Under the pieces are notes generated by a model. It was given only the letters and a program-made list of their open reading frames with translations. It was not told the origin of the DNA and did no database searches. Positions 26,893-39,565 of a DNA stretch of 64,000 bases are shown here, piece after piece; the stretch's first letter is position 1; the number at the start of each line of letters is the position of its first letter. Source of the DNA: Candidatus Pacearchaeota archaeon. GTDB taxonomy: Archaea; Nanobdellota; Nanobdellia; Pacearchaeales; GW2011-AR1. The stretch lies in assembly GCA_017609285.1 (NCBI GenBank), contig JAFCEE010000003.1, positions 11,529-75,528 of the forward strand, read 5' to 3'. The position numbers and the translations under genes were made by a program.

Positions 26893-28716
26893 TTGGACAT
26901 GACTGAAGAAACTAATAAAAAGAAAGAAAATTTGATTGGGGAAATTAAAGATATTAGTTTGGATTATCAACAAAAAAAGAAGTTTCCTACAGAAATTTCA
27001 GAGAAAGCAAAACAAGAGATGGAGAAGACAAGGAAAGAACTGGAGAGCTTTAAGAAAAAAATTCTGAAGAAGTATCCTTTTATTTTTTCTATAGGAATAT
27101 TGCCCCCACAAGCTTGTGAAAAAATAGAAGAGGAAGAAAATGTTCCTCCTGAAGAAGCGAAGAAAAAACCTATTCATCTAATTGTTTTAATACCTGAAGA
27201 ACAATTTAAGAATTTTAACAAGATTAAACTTGGTTTAATCAAGGAAACTGAAAATATAAAACCAAAAATTTGGATACATTTGAAAACTCCTGTGGATATA
27301 TGGAATTATTGTTTAGATGGGAAATATGGTATTATGTCTGCCATAGGAATGTCTTTTCCTTTATATGATAAAGGTTTTCTTGGAAGTTTGAGAGTTGCTG
27401 AAATTCATAAATCTTTAGTATTAAGAAAATTTGAGAGATATGTAGTTAGTTATGTTATAGCTGGTTCTTTGGTTAGAGGCGATGCTACAAAAACAAGTGA
27501 TGTAGATGTTTATTGTATTATAGATGATACTGATGTTAAAAGAATGCCACGTCTTGAGTTAAAAGAGAAGTTAAGAAGTATTATCTATAGTTATATTATT
27601 GAGGCGGGTGAGTTAGCAGGAGTAAAAAATAAGTTGAATGTTCAGGTATATATTTTGACAGAATTTTGGGAAAGTGTGAAAGATGCGCATCCTGTTATTT
27701 TCACTTTTATCAGAGATGGCGTTCCTTTATATGATAAGGGAACTTTTATGCCTTGGAAATTACTTCTAAAGATGGGTAAATTAAAGCCGAGTCCTGAAGC
27801 AATAGACATGTTTATGTCTATGGGAGATAAAGTAAGTAAAAGAGTTAAAAGGACTTTAACTGATTTAGTAATAGGAGATATTTATTGGGGTATTATTACA
27901 CCAAGCCAGGCTTTATTAATGTTGTATGGTCTGCCTCCCCCTACTGCAAAAGAAACACCAAAAATATTTAGAGAAACTTTTGTTGAAAAGGAAAAATTGT
28001 TAGAGAAAAAATATGCTGATATTTTAGAGAAAACAGTTAAAACTTACAAAGATTTTGAGCATGAGAAAATTAAAGATGGCGATATTAAAGGAGAAAATGT
28101 AGATAAGTTTTTGGAACAGGCAGAAGATTTTCTAAAGAGGCTAAAAGAGTTGAGAAAGCAAATTGAAAAACATAGTCAGGAAAAGACTATAGAAGATATT
28201 TACAAAAATGTTTTCGATTTACTAAAAGCTATTTTCGGAAAAAAATCTGAACAACAATTATTAGAAGAATTTGAAAAAAAATTTATTAAAAAAGGTTTTT
28301 TTCCTTTCCCTTTTTTAAGGATTTTGAAAAATATAGTTAAGACTAAAAAAGATTTTAAGAAGGGTAAGATAAAAAGAGAAGACATAGAAAATGTAAGGAA
28401 AAATGCAAATGCACTGATTAATCATTTAATAGAGTATAATCAGAGATGTGAATTAATCAGTTTACAAAAAGGCAAATTAAGATTGAAAACAAAAACTAAA
28501 ACTTATGAGTTAGTTTTAACTGATAATGTTGCTTTTTTAATTGATAAAGGTAAAGTTAGTAAGATTAATGTTAAAAGCAAGAAGTTAGAAGATAGTAGCG
28601 TTGAGGAATTAACAGAAGCTTTAGATAAGCAGAAAAAAAAGCAAGAAGTGAAAGTAGATGAGGATTTGTTTGTTATGCTAAAGAAAAAAATAGGAAAGTT
28701 TGATATTTTACTCTGA
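26893..28716 (+). CDS. Large Pol-beta-superfamily nucleotidyltransferase with HEPN-like helical domain and long Lys/Glu-rich C-terminal region
   Basis: NTase motif IAGSLVRGDATKTSDVDVYCIIDD. The following segment PWKLLLKMGKLKPSPEAI...ALLMLYGLPPPTAKE is homologous to the 285-aa protein at 34633-35490. Confidence 0.65.
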   Translation: MDMTEETNKKKENLIGEIKDISLDYQQKKKFPTEISEKAKQEMEKTRKELESFKKKILKKYPFIFSIGILPPQACEKIEEEENVPPEEAKKKPIHLIVLIPEEQFKNFNKIKLGLIKETENIKPKIWIHLKTPVDIWNYCLDGKYGIMSAIGMSFPLYDKGFLGSLRVAEIHKSLVLRKFERYVVSYVIAGSLVRGDATKTSDVDVYCIIDDTDVKRMPRLELKEKLRSIIYSYIIEAGELAGVKNKLNVQVYILTEFWESVKDAHPVIFTFIRDGVPLYDKGTFMPWKLLLKMGKLKPSPEAIDMFMSMGDKVSKRVKRTLTDLVIGDIYWGIITPSQALLMLYGLPPPTAKETPKIFRETFVEKEKLLEKKYADILEKTVKTYKDFEHEKIKDGDIKGENVDKFLEQAEDFLKRLKELRKQIEKHSQEKTIEDIYKNVFDLLKAIFGKKSEQQLLEEFEKKFIKKGFFPFPFLRILKNIVKTKKDFKKGKIKREDIENVRKNANALINHLIEYNQRCELISLQKGKLRLKTKTKTYELVLTDNVAFLIDKGKVSKINVKSKKLEDSSVEELTEALDKQKKKQEVKVDEDLFVMLKKKIGKFDILL

Positions 28717-28927
28717 TAATCTTCTATAAATAAATTCAATTAGTTTTCCTTTTCTGTCTCTAATTTCGCTTTCCTTTATCATCTCATAATATGCGCCATC
28801 TATATACATTCTTTTATCCTTGGCCAGAAATATCCTTTTTTATCTCAGTTGAGTCAAGTTTATATTTATTTAAATTTAAAAAACTTTAAAAACCATTCTT
28901 ACAACATTTTTAGAGAAAGGATAAAAA

Positions 28928-29194
28928 ATGAAAGGTAGAATAGTCCAATTTAGAAGGGGAAGACATAGAATTAAGGAAAGACATTATTTAATAGATGTTT
29001 CTATGAAAACGAAAGAAGAAGCTGAGAAGTTTGTAGGAAAAGAAGTTGTATGGAAATCCCCGGGAGGAAAAAAAATTAAAGGTAAAATTTCTTCTACTCA
29101 TGGAAATAAAGGTTTAGTTAGAGCAATATTTGAAAAAGGTTTGCCAGGGCAGGCTATAACTGATGAAATTGAGGTGATGGAGGGGGAGAAATAA
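28928..29194 (+). CDS. rpl35ae: 50S ribosomal protein L35Ae (eL33)
   Basis: MKGRIVQFRRGRHRIKERHYLIDV...FVGKEVVWKSPGGKKIKGKISSTHGNKGLVRAIFEKGLPGQA is the canonical L35Ae pattern. Confidence 0.9.
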   Translation: MKGRIVQFRRGRHRIKERHYLIDVSMKTKEEAEKFVGKEVVWKSPGGKKIKGKISSTHGNKGLVRAIFEKGLPGQAITDEIEVMEGEK

Positions 29195-29195
29195 A

Positions 29196-29732
29196 ATGGC
29201 ATTAAGAAAAGCTTTAGCTTATTCAAAGAAGAAAGTCAGGCCTTATACTCGGAAGAGCAATGTAAGGAAAAAAAGTTATATTAAGACAATACCACAGCAG
29301 AAAATTGTAAAATTTAGGATGGGTGATGTGAAAGGCTATGAAAAAGGCAAGCTGAAGAATATAGTTAAGTTAGTTTCTGGAGAAAAAGTTCTTATTAGAG
29401 ATAATGCTTTAGAAGCTTCAAGACAATATATAAATAAGATTCTAGAAAAAGAGTTGGCTGGACAATATTACTTTGAGGTTAAGATTTTTCCTCATCATAT
29501 TTTAAGAGAAAACAAAGTTTTGACAGGGGCTGGAGCTGACAGAATGCAGACAGGAATGCAAAAATCTTTTGGAAAAACAATAGGCAGGGCAGCTATAGTG
29601 TATCCAAATCAAACTCTTTTTTTGGTTGCCTTTTTTCATGAAAATCAGAGGAAAATAGTGAATAAAGTTTTAGGTAAGATAAAAGCAAAACTTCCTTGTC
29701 ATAGCAGATTAGTTTTTGAGAAAAGAGCATAG
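29196..29732 (+). CDS. rpl10e: 50S ribosomal protein L10e (uL16)
   Basis: RPYTRKSNVRKKSYIKTIPQQKIVKFRMGD...ALEASRQYINKIL...RENKVLTGAGADRMQTGM is the L10e pattern. Its start is 1 nt after the rpl35ae stop. Confidence 0.9.
   Translation: MALRKALAYSKKKVRPYTRKSNVRKKSYIKTIPQQKIVKFRMGDVKGYEKGKLKNIVKLVSGEKVLIRDNALEASRQYINKILEKELAGQYYFEVKIFPHHILRENKVLTGAGADRMQTGMQKSFGKTIGRAAIVYPNQTLFLVAFFHENQRKIVNKVLGKIKAKLPCHSRLVFEKRA
29692..29730. repeat. Direct repeat copy 1 (39 bp, exact), equal to the last 39 nt of rpl10e before its TAG stop
   Basis: ttccttgtcatagcagattagtttttgagaaaagagcat, compared base by base with 30760-30798. Confidence 0.95.
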
Positions 29733-29771
29733 AGATAAAAATTTAAAAATCTCTTTCTCCTCTTTTTCCTT

Positions 29772-30386
29772 ATGGGTAAAAGAATGTTTAGGATATTAGG
29801 AATTATTTCTTTAGTTATTGGCGCTCTCTTTTTACTTAATTCTTTTTCTGGCATTACCGGATTTGTTATCGTCGAAGAAGTTGGTAGAAATGTAAGTGGA
29901 GTTTTGGGTTTGATTTTTGTGTTAGTTGGCATGGTATTGATGTTAGCTGACAGGGAAGGGGAGAGTGAATTGGAGATAAGTATAAAAGAAGCTGTTAAAC
30001 AAGGAGTTCCAAGAGAAGAGGCTAAAAACTTATTTGATGATGCAAAAAGAAAAATTGAATCTGGAAAATGGGTTGAGTTAAAAGTATTTAGAGTTAGAGC
30101 TACTGCTAATCAAGAAACTTATCCTTATGGAACTTCTTTATGTAGATACTGGGGTCCAGAAGAATATAAAGGATTGTCACAAACTAAATTAGATAATTTA
30201 TACAAAGAAGGAAAGATAGGAAAAACTCATGAAATATTGATAGGAAGCAATAAGTATAAGATAGGCGGTCGTTTAAGTGAAGGTACAGTTAGCGTGCCTC
30301 CTAAAGCCTCACGAGTTCAACATAGGCACTGGGAGATAGCACAAATGTATAAATATAGGAAGAGAAAAGAACAAAAATCGGTTTAA
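29772..30386 (+). CDS. Hypothetical membrane protein (2 N-terminal TM helices plus a soluble domain), inside the repeat-flanked insert
   Basis: ORF track. Hydrophobic N-terminus FRILGIISLVIGALFLL...GVLGLIFVLVGMVLML. No motif recognised. Confidence 0.5.
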   Translation: MGKRMFRILGIISLVIGALFLLNSFSGITGFVIVEEVGRNVSGVLGLIFVLVGMVLMLADREGESELEISIKEAVKQGVPREEAKNLFDDAKRKIESGKWVELKVFRVRATANQETYPYGTSLCRYWGPEEYKGLSQTKLDNLYKEGKIGKTHEILIGSNKYKIGGRLSEGTVSVPPKASRVQHRHWEIAQMYKYRKRKEQKSV

Positions 30387-30388
30387 TC

Positions 30389-30703
30389 TTAATCTGAAAG
30401 CTGTCTCATATGATAATATATTTGTTCCCTATTCTTTGAGTGATAGTGTTTTGTGGTGGAATCGTGCAGTTCATCTATGAATTCGAAAGCATCCTTAAGT
30501 TCAGAAAAACCTTTATCATCCCAAAAGTTAGGATATATATGAGTTGTTTCTTCTTCTAACTCCATCCCTTTTTCATACAATTTTTGCATAGACAACCTTC
30601 CTTTATAAGCCATGCTAAAGAGAACTCGTGCTTTATGTTTTATTCTTCTCATAAATTCTTCAGTTTCTATCGCTACTTCTTCTAAAGTTTTCCCTTTAGC
30701 CAT
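30389..30703 (-). CDS. Hypothetical protein, 104 aa, inside the repeat-flanked insert
   Basis: ORF track. It is convergent with the previous gene with a 2-nt gap. No motif recognised. Confidence 0.45.
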   Translation of the reverse strand: MAKGKTLEEVAIETEEFMRRIKHKARVLFSMAYKGRLSMQKLYEKGMELEEETTHIYPNFWDDKGFSELKDAFEFIDELHDSTTKHYHSKNREQIYYHMRQLSD

Positions 30704-30759
30704 TTTGATTATAAGAAGGAAAAGATTATAAATCTTTGGTTTTTAAATTTTTCTAAAAA

Positions 30760-30798
30760 TTCCTTGTCATAGCAGATTAGTTTTTGAGAAAAGAGCAT
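30760..30798. repeat. Direct repeat copy 2 (39 bp, exact), followed by TGA
   Basis: Identical to 29692-29730. Confidence 0.95.
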
Positions 30799-30858
30799 GA
30801 GTTTAAGATTTCTGACAAGAGGCAATAAATTTATTAATTATCTTTTTCTAAATTAACT

Positions 30859-33800
30859 ATGCAAAAAAAAGAGGAAAGGATTAAAGAGGTAGAAATCAAG
30901 GTAGAGGATAAATATATTAGATGGTTTTCTGAGATTGGTAAAGAAAATGTTAAAGAAGTTGGGGGAAAGGCAGCTAATTTAGGAGAGATGTTAAAAATAG
31001 GAATGCCTGTACCGCAGGGATTTGTTATTAATGCTCCTGGCTACTTATATTTTCTTGAAAAAACAGGACTTAAAGAAAAAATTTATGAAAAACTTAAAGA
31101 TTTGAATGTTGAGGATACTGCATTATTAGAAAAAAAAGCAAAAGAAATTAGAGATATATTTGTTGAGGCTGAAATGCCCTCTGACTTAAAAGAAGAAATT
31201 TTAGAAGCTTATAATATTTTAAGTTCCCCAAAAGATCTGAAAAATATTTCTGAGTCTGCTCTTTCAATTTTAAAAATGTCTGAGCCTGCTTTTGTTGCAG
31301 TAAGGAGTTCAGCTACAGCTGAAGATTCTTCTATAGCTTCATTCGCCGGACAGCAAGAGACTTTTTTGAATATTAAGGGAAATGATGCAGTTATTGAATC
31401 AGTAAAAAAATGTTTCGCTTCTTTATTTACAGCAAGGAGCATATATTACAGAATTAAAAAAGGTTTTAAGCATGAAGATGTCTTAAATGCAGTTATTATC
31501 CAGATAATGATTAACTCAGACAAATCCGGAGTTATATTTTCTCGCGACCCAGTAACAAAAGACAAAAATGTTATAATTGAGGCTGTATTTGGTTTGGGTG
31601 AAGGTATTGTTAGTGGCAAGATAAAACCAGATTATTATGTTGTTTCTATAGATTTAGAAATTTTAAAGAAAAAAGTAGCTAATAAGAAAATAGCTATAGT
31701 AAGAACCTCTTCTGGAGAAGAAAAAGAAGTAAAGTTAACTGAAGAAAAAAGTAGGGAGCAAGTGTTAAGTAATTATGAAATTAAAAGATTAGCTGATTAT
31801 GCTTTAAGATTAGAGCAACATTATAAAGCTCCTCAGGATATTGAATTTGCCTTGGAATCTGGAGAAATTTATATCGTACAGACCAGGCCAATTACTACTT
31901 TAGAAAAAGAAGTTGGTGGGAAAGGAGTTGAAGGTAAAGAGATTTTATCTGGACAACCAGCTTCTTCAGGAATAGGAAGTGGGGAGGTAAAGATAGTTAG
32001 TACATTAGAAGATTTAAGCAAAATAAAGGAAGGTGATATTCTTGTAACAAAAATGACAAATCCTGATATGGTTGTTACCATGCAAAAAAGTTCTGCTATA
32101 ATTACAGATGAGGGAGGGATGACAGCCCATGCAGCTATTGTAAGCAGAGAAATGGGAATTCCTTGTGTTGTCGGAACTGAAAAAGCTACACAAATTTTGA
32201 AAGATGGCATGATTGTAACTGTAGATGGGTTTAGAGGTAAAGTTTATGAAGGTAAAACCGAAGGGTTGAAAGTAGAAAAAGTTGAGATTAAGCCAATAGT
32301 AGAGACAAAAACAAAAATCAAGGTTATGGTTGACTTACCTAATTTTGCAGAGAGAGCCTCAAAAACAGGATGTAAAGAGGTGGGTTTAACAAGAATAGAA
32401 GGTATAATAGCTGAATCAGGGAAGCATCCATTAGCGTTTTTAAATGAAGGAAAGATACATGAATATGAAGAAATTATTTTTTCTGGTTTAAGTAAGATAG
32501 CTAAGTATTTCGATAATTTATGGGTAAGGACAAGTGACATAAGAACCGATGAATTTAGAAATCTAGAAGGCTCTCCTAAAAAAATAGAGGCAAATCCAAT
32601 GTTAGGCATGCATGGTATTAGAGCTGGTTTAAAATATAAAGAAATATTAAAAGCTGAGTTAAAAGCTATATCAAGATTAAAGGAAGAAGGAAAAGAGGTT
32701 GGTATTTTATTACCGCAAGTAATTTCTGTTTCAGAAGTTAAGAAGGTTAAAGAAATTTTAAAAGAAATTAATGCTGAAAATTTAGAATTGGGAGTTATGA
32801 TTGAAACTCCCGCTTCAATACAGATTATAGAGGATTTATGTAAAGAAGGAATTAGCTTCATAAGTTTTGGAACTAATGATTTAACCCAGTATACATTGGC
32901 TATAGACCGGGGCAATGCAGACGTTCAAAATTTATATGATGAAATGCATTCTGCTGTTCTCTCCCAACTTGAATTTGTTATAAGAGAATGTAAAAAGTAT
33001 GGAGTAGAAACAAGTATTTGTGGACAAGCTGGAAGTAAAAAAGAAATGGCAGAGTTTTTAGTTAAATTAGGAATTGATAGCATAAGTGTTAATGCAGACA
33101 AAGCTTTTGAAATCTCCTCTTTTGTAAAAGAATTAGAAGATAGAGGTTTGAGAGGTGTAGAGTTAGATAGGATAAGTTTAGGTGAAGGGAAAGCTGTAGA
33201 GGGGAATGAGGAAAAATTAGAGGAAGAAATAGAAAAAGTTAATTCTCTTTCTTTAGAGGAGCAAGATAAGAAAGAGGGAGATAGAGATGAAGAGAATGGA
33301 GAAGAAAGAGAGGAAAAAGAGGAGAGAGATGAATTTGGGAGAAAATTATATGGTATTAGGTGTGATAAGTGTGGCAAAAATGCTAAGGTTCCTTTTGAGC
33401 CAGAAGAAGGAAGGGAGATCTATTGTAAAAGTTGCTATAATGAGATAAAAAAAGAAAGAAAGGAAATGAAAAAAGAAAAAGATTTTAAAGATGAAAATAT
33501 AAATACTGAAATGGAAGAAAATTCTGAGGATAGTAGAGAAGAAGGAAGAGAAGAAATTGAACAGAGAGGAGAAGAAGAGAAAAGATTGGAAGAATGGCAG
33601 GATGTGGAGTTTGGCATAGATGTTTTTTCAGACCAGCAGCAAAAAGGAAAAGAGAAGGAAAAATTAAAGGAAGAAAGTAAAGATAATAAAGAAACAGGAA
33701 AAAAAGAGGAAGGAAAGGAAGAGGGAGGGCAAGATAGAAAAGAGGAAAAAGCTAAAAAAGAAACAGAAAAACAAGATGAAAGAGAAGAATCTGAAGAAGA

Positions 33801-33927
33801 AAAGGAAGAACAAGTTAAAGATGATAAAGAAGAGAATCCAGGAAATGGAGAGACTGAGGCTAAAGAAGGAGCAGAAAAAGAAGAAGAAAAAGAAAATGGT
33901 GGAGAAGAAGTTTTAGATATTTTCTAA
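30859..33927 (+). CDS. ppsA: Phosphoenolpyruvate synthase with an atypical ~260-aa acidic C-terminal extension containing a 4-Cys zinc ribbon
   Basis: VGGKAANLGEM, GFVINAPGY, the phospho-His region GGMTAHAAIVSREMGIPCVVGT and the PEP-utilising TIM motif FGTNDLTQYTLAIDRGN. After about aa 760 come the E/K/D/G-rich tail and YGIRCDKCGKNAKVPFEPEEGREIYCKSC. Confidence 0.9.
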   Translation: MQKKEERIKEVEIKVEDKYIRWFSEIGKENVKEVGGKAANLGEMLKIGMPVPQGFVINAPGYLYFLEKTGLKEKIYEKLKDLNVEDTALLEKKAKEIRDIFVEAEMPSDLKEEILEAYNILSSPKDLKNISESALSILKMSEPAFVAVRSSATAEDSSIASFAGQQETFLNIKGNDAVIESVKKCFASLFTARSIYYRIKKGFKHEDVLNAVIIQIMINSDKSGVIFSRDPVTKDKNVIIEAVFGLGEGIVSGKIKPDYYVVSIDLEILKKKVANKKIAIVRTSSGEEKEVKLTEEKSREQVLSNYEIKRLADYALRLEQHYKAPQDIEFALESGEIYIVQTRPITTLEKEVGGKGVEGKEILSGQPASSGIGSGEVKIVSTLEDLSKIKEGDILVTKMTNPDMVVTMQKSSAIITDEGGMTAHAAIVSREMGIPCVVGTEKATQILKDGMIVTVDGFRGKVYEGKTEGLKVEKVEIKPIVETKTKIKVMVDLPNFAERASKTGCKEVGLTRIEGIIAESGKHPLAFLNEGKIHEYEEIIFSGLSKIAKYFDNLWVRTSDIRTDEFRNLEGSPKKIEANPMLGMHGIRAGLKYKEILKAELKAISRLKEEGKEVGILLPQVISVSEVKKVKEILKEINAENLELGVMIETPASIQIIEDLCKEGISFISFGTNDLTQYTLAIDRGNADVQNLYDEMHSAVLSQLEFVIRECKKYGVETSICGQAGSKKEMAEFLVKLGIDSISVNADKAFEISSFVKELEDRGLRGVELDRISLGEGKAVEGNEEKLEEEIEKVNSLSLEEQDKKEGDRDEENGEEREEKEERDEFGRKLYGIRCDKCGKNAKVPFEPEEGREIYCKSCYNEIKKERKEMKKEKDFKDENINTEMEENSEDSREEGREEIEQRGEEEKRLEEWQDVEFGIDVFSDQQQKGKEKEKLKEESKDNKETGKKEEGKEEGGQDRKEEKAKKETEKQDEREESEEEKEEQVKDDKEENPGNGETEAKEGAEKEEEKENGGEEVLDIF

Positions 33928-38038: not shown

Positions 38039-39565
38039 TTATTCAATAGGCGGGTGAGAAGCCATGCCATGGGCTTTTTTGTATATATCAAACAAGGTAA
38101 AGCAAGTGCTTATTGCAGAATTTTCTGCTGCTTTTCTAACTAATTTTTCTACATAATTATCTGGCTTTATTTCAGTTATCTTTTCCTTATCTTCTCCCTC
38201 TTTCTTCTTTTCTTCGCTTTTTTCTTTTTTTTCTGTCAATCCAATTAAAGCAGCAAAAGGATTTACATCTTCCCCACTTTTTTTCTTTTCTTCAGCTTCT
38301 TCTTTTTCTCTTTCCTCCTCTTCTTTTAAAAAATAGTTTATATCTTCTTGCAACTCATCGAGTGATTCTTCTGTTGTGCCAGAAACAAGTTTTAAAGCGT
38401 CAGCTAAATCACTTTCATCCAGCTTTTGCTCTAACATTTTTAGTTCATCGTCATTTAAAGCATAAGCTTTAAATGTTACTTCAGCTCTACCACCAAAAAC
38501 ATAATGCTGCCCTACTTTTTGAGGTATTCCTCTAAAAAAGAAATCAACTAACACACAAGAATAATAATCTCTTTTTAATTTAACTTTTTTAAAAGATTCT
38601 GGTAATTCTTTATCTACAATTGCTTGTTCAAAATTCACCTGCTTTTTGCCCAGGAGAGTCAATTCAAGAAGAATAGTATTAAAAGCAGTAACCAAAGAAG
38701 GCTCTCTTCCTACTTCTTTTTGTTCTAATTGTGTGGCTGCTTTTAAATAAGGTTTTGCCCATCTGGAGTAAAGTTTTAAAGCATTTACCTGGCTTTTTAG
38801 ATAAGTTTTTTCAATTTCATATCTCTTTTTTAACTCTCTTTCACTTCTCTTTTTCCATTCAAAAAATTCAGCAAGTCTCGGCTTAAGAATTCTCTTTACT
38901 CTATCATTTAAATCCATCTTATCAACTTCTTCCACTGACTTAGCAACCATAAAAGCATCTCTTATGGTTACAAAATTTAAATCTTGAGCTAACATGTTAA
39001 TACTTCCCCTGCCTCTTTTTATATCAACATTATCCATCCAAATTTGTTTTAAAGCAAGCAAAGCAGATTCAGCTTTCTTTTTATCTTCAGAATGAGAATC
39101 TTTATAATGTTGCAACCTAATCTCGAATTCTTTTAAGTCATAAATTAGATTGATTATGCTTTTTATAACTGTATTTGCATTACCTAAAATTTTCATCGCT
39201 TCTTCTTGCATTCTTGTTGCTTTTCCCATTAGTTCTGAGAAATGTCCTGAGCCAGGAGAGGATGTAAAGTTATCAACTATTTTTTCTACTTTTCCACTAA
39301 ATAAGTCGTTCATTAAGTCAAGAATCCAAAAGTATACTGGCTCAAGAGTTTCAGAAGTTGATTGATAAATTAGTTTATGCTCTTGTGCTGAAGTGGGCTT
39401 TAAATTATACTTTTTCCCCATGTCTTTTAATGCCTGCCAGAAATCTTGTTTTAAAGCTTTTTTAAACCCTGATTTATCTGCAGGTTGATAGTCTTCCTTT
39501 TTTGTGGTATATTTACCTGGATTTATACCTGCAATTACCTTGCTTACATCATCTATAGTTGGCAT
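38039..39565 (-). CDS. Large alpha-helical protein, 508 aa, function unknown (first gene of a three-gene operon)
   Basis: ORF track. Long heptad-like helical stretches, an acidic EEEEREKEEAEEKKK linker, no signal peptide, no P-loop. I cannot place it in any family. Confidence 0.55.
   Translation of the reverse strand: MPTIDDVSKVIAGINPGKYTTKKEDYQPADKSGFKKALKQDFWQALKDMGKKYNLKPTSAQEHKLIYQSTSETLEPVYFWILDLMNDLFSGKVEKIVDNFTSSPGSGHFSELMGKATRMQEEAMKILGNANTVIKSIINLIYDLKEFEIRLQHYKDSHSEDKKKAESALLALKQIWMDNVDIKRGRGSINMLAQDLNFVTIRDAFMVAKSVEEVDKMDLNDRVKRILKPRLAEFFEWKKRSERELKKRYEIEKTYLKSQVNALKLYSRWAKPYLKAATQLEQKEVGREPSLVTAFNTILLELTLLGKKQVNFEQAIVDKELPESFKKVKLKRDYYSCVLVDFFFRGIPQKVGQHYVFGGRAEVTFKAYALNDDELKMLEQKLDESDLADALKLVSGTTEESLDELQEDINYFLKEEEEREKEEAEEKKKSGEDVNPFAALIGLTEKKEKSEEKKKEGEDKEKITEIKPDNYVEKLVRKAAENSAISTCFTLFDIYKKAHGMASHPPIE

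Follow-up and report, generated by a model that had tools for sequence, protein, structure and literature searches.

A strain-variable two-gene cassette between exact repeats of the rpl10e 3' end in a Pacearchaeota genome, and its possible origin by homology-anchored recombination

The 64,000-nucleotide stretch of contig JAFCEE010000003.1 analysed here (hereafter the window, meaning the stretch at its full length) belongs to the genome of a Pacearchaeota-type DPANN archaeon, 0.59 Mb in 8 contigs, in which the ribosomal protein gene rpl10e is separated from its downstream neighbour ppsA by two small convergent open reading frames (ORFs), ORF204 and ORF104, enclosed between exact direct repeats of the rpl10e 3' end. 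This arrangement reflects a real insertion/deletion polymorphism, which is strain-variable and recent. The insert is an accessory two-gene module and not a foreign self-mobile element, and we tentatively favour the explanation that the cassette entered by recombination between cassette-bearing and empty forms of the rpl10e-ppsA locus.

The repeated 39-mer, TTCCTTGTCATAGCAGATTAGTTTTTGAGAAAAGAGCAT, is present in two exact copies in the window, at 29692-29730 and 30760-30798, with 0 mismatches, at the very positions given in a preliminary description of this DNA. Duplication of a 39-mer arose in 0 of 100 shuffles, the chance expectation being none, and across the whole 0.59-Mb genome this is the only repeat that duplicates a gene end. 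When widened by 5 nt leftwards the match becomes 43/44, with AAAAC on the left against AAAAA on the right. The left copy supplies the final 13 codons of rpl10e and runs into TAG, while the right copy is non-coding and runs into TGA and then the ppsA leader; both yield the L10e C-terminus ...LVFEKRA and a stop codon, as had been described. The copies are 1029 nt apart, giving a unit of 1,068 bp (one repeat plus 1,029 bp), and the GC content of the insert is that of its surroundings. Two ORFs of at least 40 aa with support were detected between the repeats, a 204-aa protein with two transmembrane (TM) helices and a convergent 104-aa protein, and neither matches a recombinase or integrase family in Pfam, PHROG, PADLOC or NCBIfam, so that the description of the insert as two genes without an integrase is upheld. 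The locus reads from left to right as follows.

28928..29194, plus strand: rpl35Ae (ribosomal protein L35Ae), upstream neighbour; Pfam PF01247, E 4.5e-17; the order nucleotidyltransferase (NTase)-L35Ae-L10e is kept across the family
29196..29732, plus strand: rpl10e (uL16/L10e), 178 aa, ending ...LVFEKRA and then TAG; Pfam PF00252 (Ribosomal_L16), E 3.4e-23
29687..29730, plus strand: left repeat copy, the exact 39 nt at 29692-29730 after AAAAC; last 13 rpl10e codons and the T of the stop
29731..29745, plus strand: first nucleotides past the left repeat, AGAGATAAAAATTT
29737..29771, plus strand: A/T-rich TATA-like box ATAAAAATTTAAAAA, about 20-25 nt upstream of the ORF204 ATG, read from the sequence
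29772..30386, plus strand: ORF204, 204 aa, two N-terminal TM helices and an alpha/beta C-domain
30389..30703, minus strand: ORF104, 104 aa, five-helix bundle, convergent to ORF204
30726..30737, minus strand: promoter-like box AAAGATTTATAA, 22 nt upstream of the ORF104 ATG, read from the sequence
30755..30798, plus strand: right repeat copy, the exact 39 nt at 30760-30798 after AAAAA; non-coding
30799..30858, plus strand: native rpl10e-ppsA spacer GAGTTTAAGATTTCTGACAAG..., joined directly to rpl10e in the X1 empty site (see below)
30859..33927, plus strand: ppsA (phosphoenolpyruvate synthase-like, 1022 aa), ancestral downstream neighbour of rpl10e

Empty forms of this locus were recovered from two public metagenomes, in relatives approximately 93-95% identical to the window. 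A 151-nt contig from a hydrothermal vent metagenome (X1) carries the equivalent of rpl10e positions 29605-29728 with 8 differences and then continues with CTGAGTTTGAGGTTTCTGATAAGAGAC, which, apart from 4 differences, is what follows the right repeat of the window; depth over the cassette is zero. In the other metagenome (X5), rpl10e 29591-29730 (95% identical) is followed by GATTGTTACTA, a different leader. Among more distant genomes, the closest genus representative (G013, L10e 70% identical) has ppsA directly after rpl10e and the two genes are likewise adjacent in a member of another family of the same order (G037), confirming the expectation that related genomes would show an unoccupied site. 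Orthologues of rpl10e are present in 40 of 41 relatives, and the order NTase-L35Ae-L10e-ppsA is conserved family-wide, with a gap of 27 to 3,680 nt between rpl10e and ppsA. The contigs of the Joint Genome Institute (JGI) metagenomes contained no strain-level relative above 77% L10e identity.

The repeat region of X1 differs from the window by three synonymous changes (3/39 positions) and, since the two window copies are identical to each other, the duplication must be younger than the 5-7% divergence between the strains. A second copy of the own rpl10e end was found at none of the loci of about 60 relatives. That the duplication is instead ancient, fixed and common to the lineage is next to inconceivable: the cassette genes are indeed old residents of the neighbourhood in several genera, but the repeats are identical while relatives diverged by 5-7% differ at 3/39 positions and have no insert, and no relative retains a diverged repeat copy. 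This reading was rejected, and the empty sites contradict the possibility, raised in the preliminary description, that all relatives share the arrangement with diverged repeats. The same description had allowed for an assembly artefact, in which an empty chromosome and a separate molecule would have been threaded together via their common 39-mer. Such an origin is extremely improbable. It could draw on the fact that 39 is one default k of a common assembler, and on an independent JGI contig (L038, sample 3300033149) that stops 95 nt past the right repeat, suggesting a branch of the assembly graph there. However, the contig ends of the source genome overlap by 114 nt, implying k of about 115, so the 39-nt repeat could not alone have caused a misjoin, and every junction 115-mer must have been present in the reads. 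L038 itself spans 27345-30800 with the same left and right junctions, differing from the window by 11 single-nucleotide polymorphisms over 3456 nt (~99.7% identical), and the artefact was rejected on account of this second assembly and the value of k. Even taken jointly, artefact and ancient duplication are very improbable.

L038 also reveals a second downstream context. It follows the window through the right repeat and from 30801 reads GATTGTTACTATTTCTAAG...ATGGGTAAATTAAAATTAGAAGAAGC, its last 95 nt, so two nearly identical strains differ in the sequence to which the right repeat is joined. The first 11 nt of the differing end are those with which the X5 empty site continues, and its first 14 nt resemble the ppsA leader of the window (p ~0.03), so this end may represent a divergent allele of that leader; other DNA, or a chimera formed at the end of the contig, is also possible. 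The sequence was not found in the genome of the window. A comparable residue of homology may exist within the window, where the sequences past the left and right repeats match at 10/13 positions with a 1-nt indel (p ~0.009 against shuffles), which suggests that the rpl10e 3' flanks retain some allelic homology.

A probable donor-type junction was found in a sediment metagenome (X2), which carries the cassette at about 95% identity over 29834-30138, 30207-30564 and 30688-30768. The right flank of this copy matches the window through AAAAATTCCTTGTC (to 30768), the first 14 nt of the right repeat, and then proceeds not with the rest of the repeat but with TTGTCTTGTCTGCTTTTAATGTCCTCTCGA, opening TTGTCTTGTCTGC.... 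AAAAATTCCTTGTC matches rpl10e at 13 of 14 nt, and a right flank that shares only this stretch with the repeat before diverging speaks for a join at microhomology and against an att (attachment) site. All three minus-strand frames of the flank close within a few codons, which is compatible with a gene upstream of ORF104 ending in this flank; three other lineages (G063, L039 and L045) have a co-directional gene in this position. The junction sequence was not found in IMG/VR or among the GTDB representatives. A further sequence set, X4, has the cassette at 93% identity and an rpl10e allele in which base 29691 is A, like the right copy of the window. Both X4 and X5 read G for T at window position 29603 (rpl10e codon 136), a change that alone would convert TAT into TAG; adjacent unlisted differences may rescue the codon.

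Under the explanation favoured here, rpl10e-TAG-ORF204/ORF104 would have led, in the donor, into AAAAATTCCTTGTC and then another gene, the expected form being rpl10e-TAG-ORF204/ORF104-AAAAATTCC(TTGTC)3-ORFx with no second rpl10e fragment, and in the recipient rpl10e would have been followed directly by ppsA. The left crossover would be ordinary homologous recombination in or upstream of rpl10e, and the right join would have formed at a 13/14-nt microhomology, AAAA(A/C)TTCCTTGTC, between the right flank of the cassette and recipient rpl10e codons 165-169. Because this join site lies 30 nt before the rpl10e end, the last 39-44 nt of rpl10e would come to stand on both sides of the insert. The result would be a scar of the type left by homology-facilitated illegitimate recombination (HFIR), in which the left copy, with the TAG stop of the donor, keeps L10e intact, and the original gene end, still followed by its TGA stop and the ppsA leader, has been displaced to become the right copy. 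No element-encoded enzyme would be needed, and homologous recombination between the exact repeats can now remove the unit precisely or swap what lies downstream. For the left-side arrangement of the donor, a gain rather than a loss as the direction of the event, and the enzymes involved, the scheme is what we infer.

Comparison of the neighbourhood across lineages shows that the cargo is not foreign but native to the rpl10e-ppsA neighbourhood of Pacearchaeota, because the N-terminal domain of ORF204 is homologous to two-TM genes after rpl10e and because the pair stays in the neighbourhood. These small two-TM genes (48-75 aa) stand directly after rpl10e in many relatives (L055, L072, L064, L076, L078 and L082-L084). 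A homologue of ORF204 itself lies between rpl10e and ppsA in G063, together with extra genes, after rpl10e and an ABC transporter gene in L045, and just past ppsA in L046 and L048; in L039 the pair is found within the apurinic/apyrimidinic (AP) endonuclease operon, corresponding to 35.5-39.3 kb of the window. The homologues of L045, L046, L048 and L039 all fall within the same conserved region of about 15 kb, and the pair is kept within the same neighbourhood in six other lineages, with varying exact positions and one inversion. On the L10e tree the pair-bearing lineages require at least three gains or losses; comparison of the ORF204 tree with the L10e tree for vertical or horizontal descent was limited by the lack of resolution of the former. 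Flanking repeats were absent from the pair loci of other lineages except for a weak 10-nt repeat in L101 (contig of GCA_964427475.1, 440-1160), in which rpl10e, an ORF204 homologue and ppsA follow one another without ORF104, and the rpl10e stop codon and that of the inserted gene each fall within a copy of the direct repeat GCTTAGTTCT (p ~0.03). A short flanking repeat in G063 was not significant.

Other accessory genes were observed around the same locus. Upstream of rpl35Ae in G063 (L037:1397-2633), an AbiEi/AbiEii toxin-antitoxin pair stands between the NTase gene and rpl35Ae, another sign that this ribosomal-protein neighbourhood collects accessory genes. At L055:3888-6893 (L10e 68% identical), the match to ppsA falls into two parts, residues 9-174 and 160-489, separated by about 1.5 kb, which suggests an insertion, either an intein or an element, inside ppsA. 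The 409-aa gene beside the pair in L039 (L039:6001-8169) is an orthologue, 54% identical, of the helical protein encoded at 38057-39313 (minus strand) in the AP-endonuclease operon of the window. A conserved third gene of the cassette was considered and rejected, as the 366-, 409- and 439-aa neighbours are not all homologous: only those of L045 and L072 match each other, and that of L039 matches window 38057-39313.

The microhomology model accounts for the junction seen in X2, for a cargo native to the locus, for the homology left in the flanks and for the way the pair shifts position without leaving its neighbourhood. An X2 flank that matches no further than AAAAATTCCTTGTC is what it predicts for the donor form, and in the X2 contig two sequences that are otherwise unrelated do meet at a short microhomology. 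Several points nevertheless weigh against it. The arrangement of the donor is deduced, the left neighbour of the cassette not having been recovered in X2 or X4, with indirect support from ORF204 homologues placed immediately behind rpl10e in L101 and close to it in G063 and L045; and the X2 junction rests on one low-coverage 188-nt Logan contig. The 13/14-nt microhomology exceeds the 3-10 bp typical of HFIR and could be the remnant of an older repeat or of an att crossover region, and we know of no description of HFIR in archaea. The scatter of the pair over the L10e tree, with its three or more changes, fits a site-specific element as well; the two downstream contexts of the window and L038 may mean that the repeat is a recurrent exchange point; and a repeat of 39-44 nt is typical of archaeal att sites (29-69 bp; PMC6563490). 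It is conceivable, though on balance unlikely, that the 39-44-nt block is the att core of a site at the rpl10e 3' end, from which an integrase-less cassette excises as a circle with a replacement end and is moved in trans by a tyrosine recombinase of the host or of another element. Direct repeats of the usual archaeal att length that overlap a gene 3' end and preserve the stop (PMC6563490), empty sites in relatives that could serve as attB, a 0.59-Mb genome with three Xer-like recombinase genes that are intact and a fourth that is a pseudogene, the joining of the right repeat to two downstream sequences in near-identical strains, and a pair that is patchy yet always near rpl10e/ppsA would all fit this account, in which the X2 junction could be a secondary-site insertion with only the overlap region in common. 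On the other hand, neither a circle nor an attP junction turned up in six low-coverage public runs, IMG/VR and the GTDB representatives (185k species genomes) do not contain the core, and the core has neither a further copy in the genome nor a second use by independent insertions in about 60 relatives. Neither dyad symmetry nor a hairpin is seen in the repeat, which together with its flanks folds as a single strand no better than shuffles do (z-scores ~0.3-0.6), and elsewhere the pair occupies other exact positions, once inverted, without repeats, with an N-domain that is positionally native. Of the site-specific integration into the rpl10e 3' end put forward in the preliminary description, the insertion polymorphism is borne out by the empty sites; the att-type mechanism is not demonstrated. 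Similarly, of its three options of mini-element, decayed element or cassette, an accessory cassette without integrase stands, and a foreign mobile element does not, the cargo being native and not carried by viruses or plasmids.

A more specific form of the att account, which seems distinctly unlikely, would make the last 39-44 nt of rpl10e a site at which Pacearchaeota attach cassettes that lack an integrase, served by one of the three Xer-like recombinases, as an archaeal counterpart of integrative mobile elements exploiting Xer (IMEX) and of pdif modules. If this were true, small promoter-bearing cassettes (ORF204/ORF104, and possibly the differing downstream sequence of L038) would be swapped there, and the patchiness of the pair yet its constant presence around rpl10e-ppsA would be accounted for. 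The Xer-like tyrosine recombinases of the genome (270-284 aa) lie at C7:9040-9525, C3:86052-86531 and C7:81694-82167, two of them being paralogues near contig ends, and the pseudogene, at C1:7058-7558, precedes the start of the window by about 4 kb; no 28-bp dif-like sites with inverted arms for XerC and XerD flank the insert, the repeat being without a dyad. A multi-copy element of about 115-190 nt, TTTTCCCACCCTGAAAGAAAAATTAAAACTCAYGAGGGGCTTTTTTAGCCCAGCTCGTGCC..., was also noticed outside the window (C7:83718-83900, C5:3149-3336, C2:7960-8074 and C2:200-310 of G000), one copy being 1.5 kb from a Xer-like recombinase gene and others near contig ends. A Campbell-type event is quite unlikely too. 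In this case, a fragment of a related strain, comprising the rpl10e 3' end and the cassette, would have been circularised by chance and integrated through a single crossover in the 39-nt identity by host homologous recombination, with neither a join at microhomology nor a dedicated recombinase. The exact repeats with sharp borders and the native-like cargo and GC content agree with such an event, as does the base left of the right copy (A), which is that of the X4/X5 rpl10e allele and not the C of the window, as if it came from another strain; but the X2 flank, with 14 nt of the repeat and then divergence, is left unexplained, and the circularisation required is itself unexplained. Among other mobile elements, a DNA transposon, insertion sequence or miniature inverted-repeat transposable element was rejected, as no terminal inverted repeats are present at 29731/30759, no transposase is encoded and the duplication is 39-44 nt long. 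A casposon, which would bring Cas1 and terminal inverted repeats and duplicate about 14-15 bp of its target site, was rejected for want of Cas1 and inverted repeats, and an integron cassette because neither IntI/attI nor an attC hairpin is present.

The two cargo proteins form a rare and tightly co-occurring pair under purifying selection. ORF204 has 13 homologues in a collection of 5.8 billion proteins, all on Pacearchaeota-type contigs, and the profile of its C-domain recovers only 50 clusters among 1.84 billion representatives. ORF104 co-occurs with the ORF204 C-domain in at least eight lineages, being convergent beside ORF204 homologues in G063, L039, L045, L046, L048, L100 and L102, and in the 95%-identical X2 copy it shows 9 nucleotide changes and 1 amino acid change. 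Invariant residues of ORF204 include W100, T121-S122, Y126-W127-G128, G150-K151-x-H153-E154 and H184-R185-H186-W187-E188, the GKTHE and HRHWE motifs of this membrane-anchored domain thus being invariant. Neither protein matches a family in Pfam, PHROG, PADLOC or NCBIfam, and although AlphaFold (AF2) gave confident models, with predicted local distance difference test (pLDDT) scores of 86 for ORF204 and 92.7 for ORF104, Foldseek found no fold match for either in the PDB or BFVD. The pair is thus a reasonable functional target, for instance as toxin and immunity protein or as enzyme and regulator. The search of plasmids and viruses that had been proposed for the two ORFs returned nothing from IMG/VR, the INPHARED phages or the PLSDB plasmids. 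In a representative library, one distant homologue of 686 aa (P0043) has an ORF204-like part (two TM helices and the C-domain, residues 67-199) fused to a MATCAP/DUF1704 metallopeptidase-like domain (E 4e-24); as a clue to function this fusion was set aside as uninformative. Each gene may possess its own promoter: box ATAAAAATTTAAAAA would be that of ORF204, whose mRNA would then be leaderless, and AAAGATTTATAA is a putative promoter of ORF104, fitting the generic promoter word of the genome at 11 of 12 positions.

DPANN archaea have tiny genomes, and gene gain and loss in them are poorly documented. The type of event described here is already known, and the locus is a new, well-resolved example of it in a lineage where it is rarely documented. 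Public data make the gain or loss visible at base-pair resolution, since they contain the occupied site, empty sites of two kinds and what is probably a donor-type junction. Should the microhomology reading hold, genes would pass between related ultra-small archaea through recombination anchored in homology, with no need of mobile-element machinery, which would also account for accessory genes wandering within a conserved neighbourhood. If the att reading is true, the locus would instead represent a minimal trans-mobilised cassette in archaea.

Systems in which small cargo moves without a recombinase of its own are known from bacteria. Xer-dependent IMEX elements such as CTX-phi and the pdif modules of Acinetobacter plasmids carry such cargo between copies of a host site and are moved in trans by Xer, their sites being 28 bp long and dif-like with two inverted 11-bp arms. 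The Pacearchaeota cassette resembles them in its small recombinase-less cargo and in the three Xer-like genes of its genome, and differs in that its repeat has no arm symmetry and lies inside a coding region. With integron cassettes it shares the format of one or two promoter-proximal genes exchanged at a recombination site, but without IntI, attI or an attC hairpin. Archaeal integrated elements, including cryptic elements, proviruses and casposons, target the 3'-distal part of protein-coding genes, with crenarchaeal att sites of 29-69 bp (PMC6563490), and the present locus is like them in having repeats that overlap a gene end, an intact gene, an empty site in relatives and a repeat length within this range. 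Those elements, however, are multigene (kb to tens of kb) and encode an integrase or Cas1, in contrast to the 1 kb, two orphan genes, native cargo and missing recombinase found here. HFIR with microhomologies of 3-10 bp has been documented in naturally transformable bacteria (PMC6382021; source work by de Vries & Wackernagel 2002, as summarised there). As in HFIR, one end of the insert would be anchored in homology (rpl10e) and the other joined at a microhomology, with extra DNA beside the anchor, a duplication or deletion at the illegitimate joint and no element-encoded enzyme; unlike in HFIR as documented, the host is a DPANN archaeon and donor and recipient were apparently variants of the same locus.

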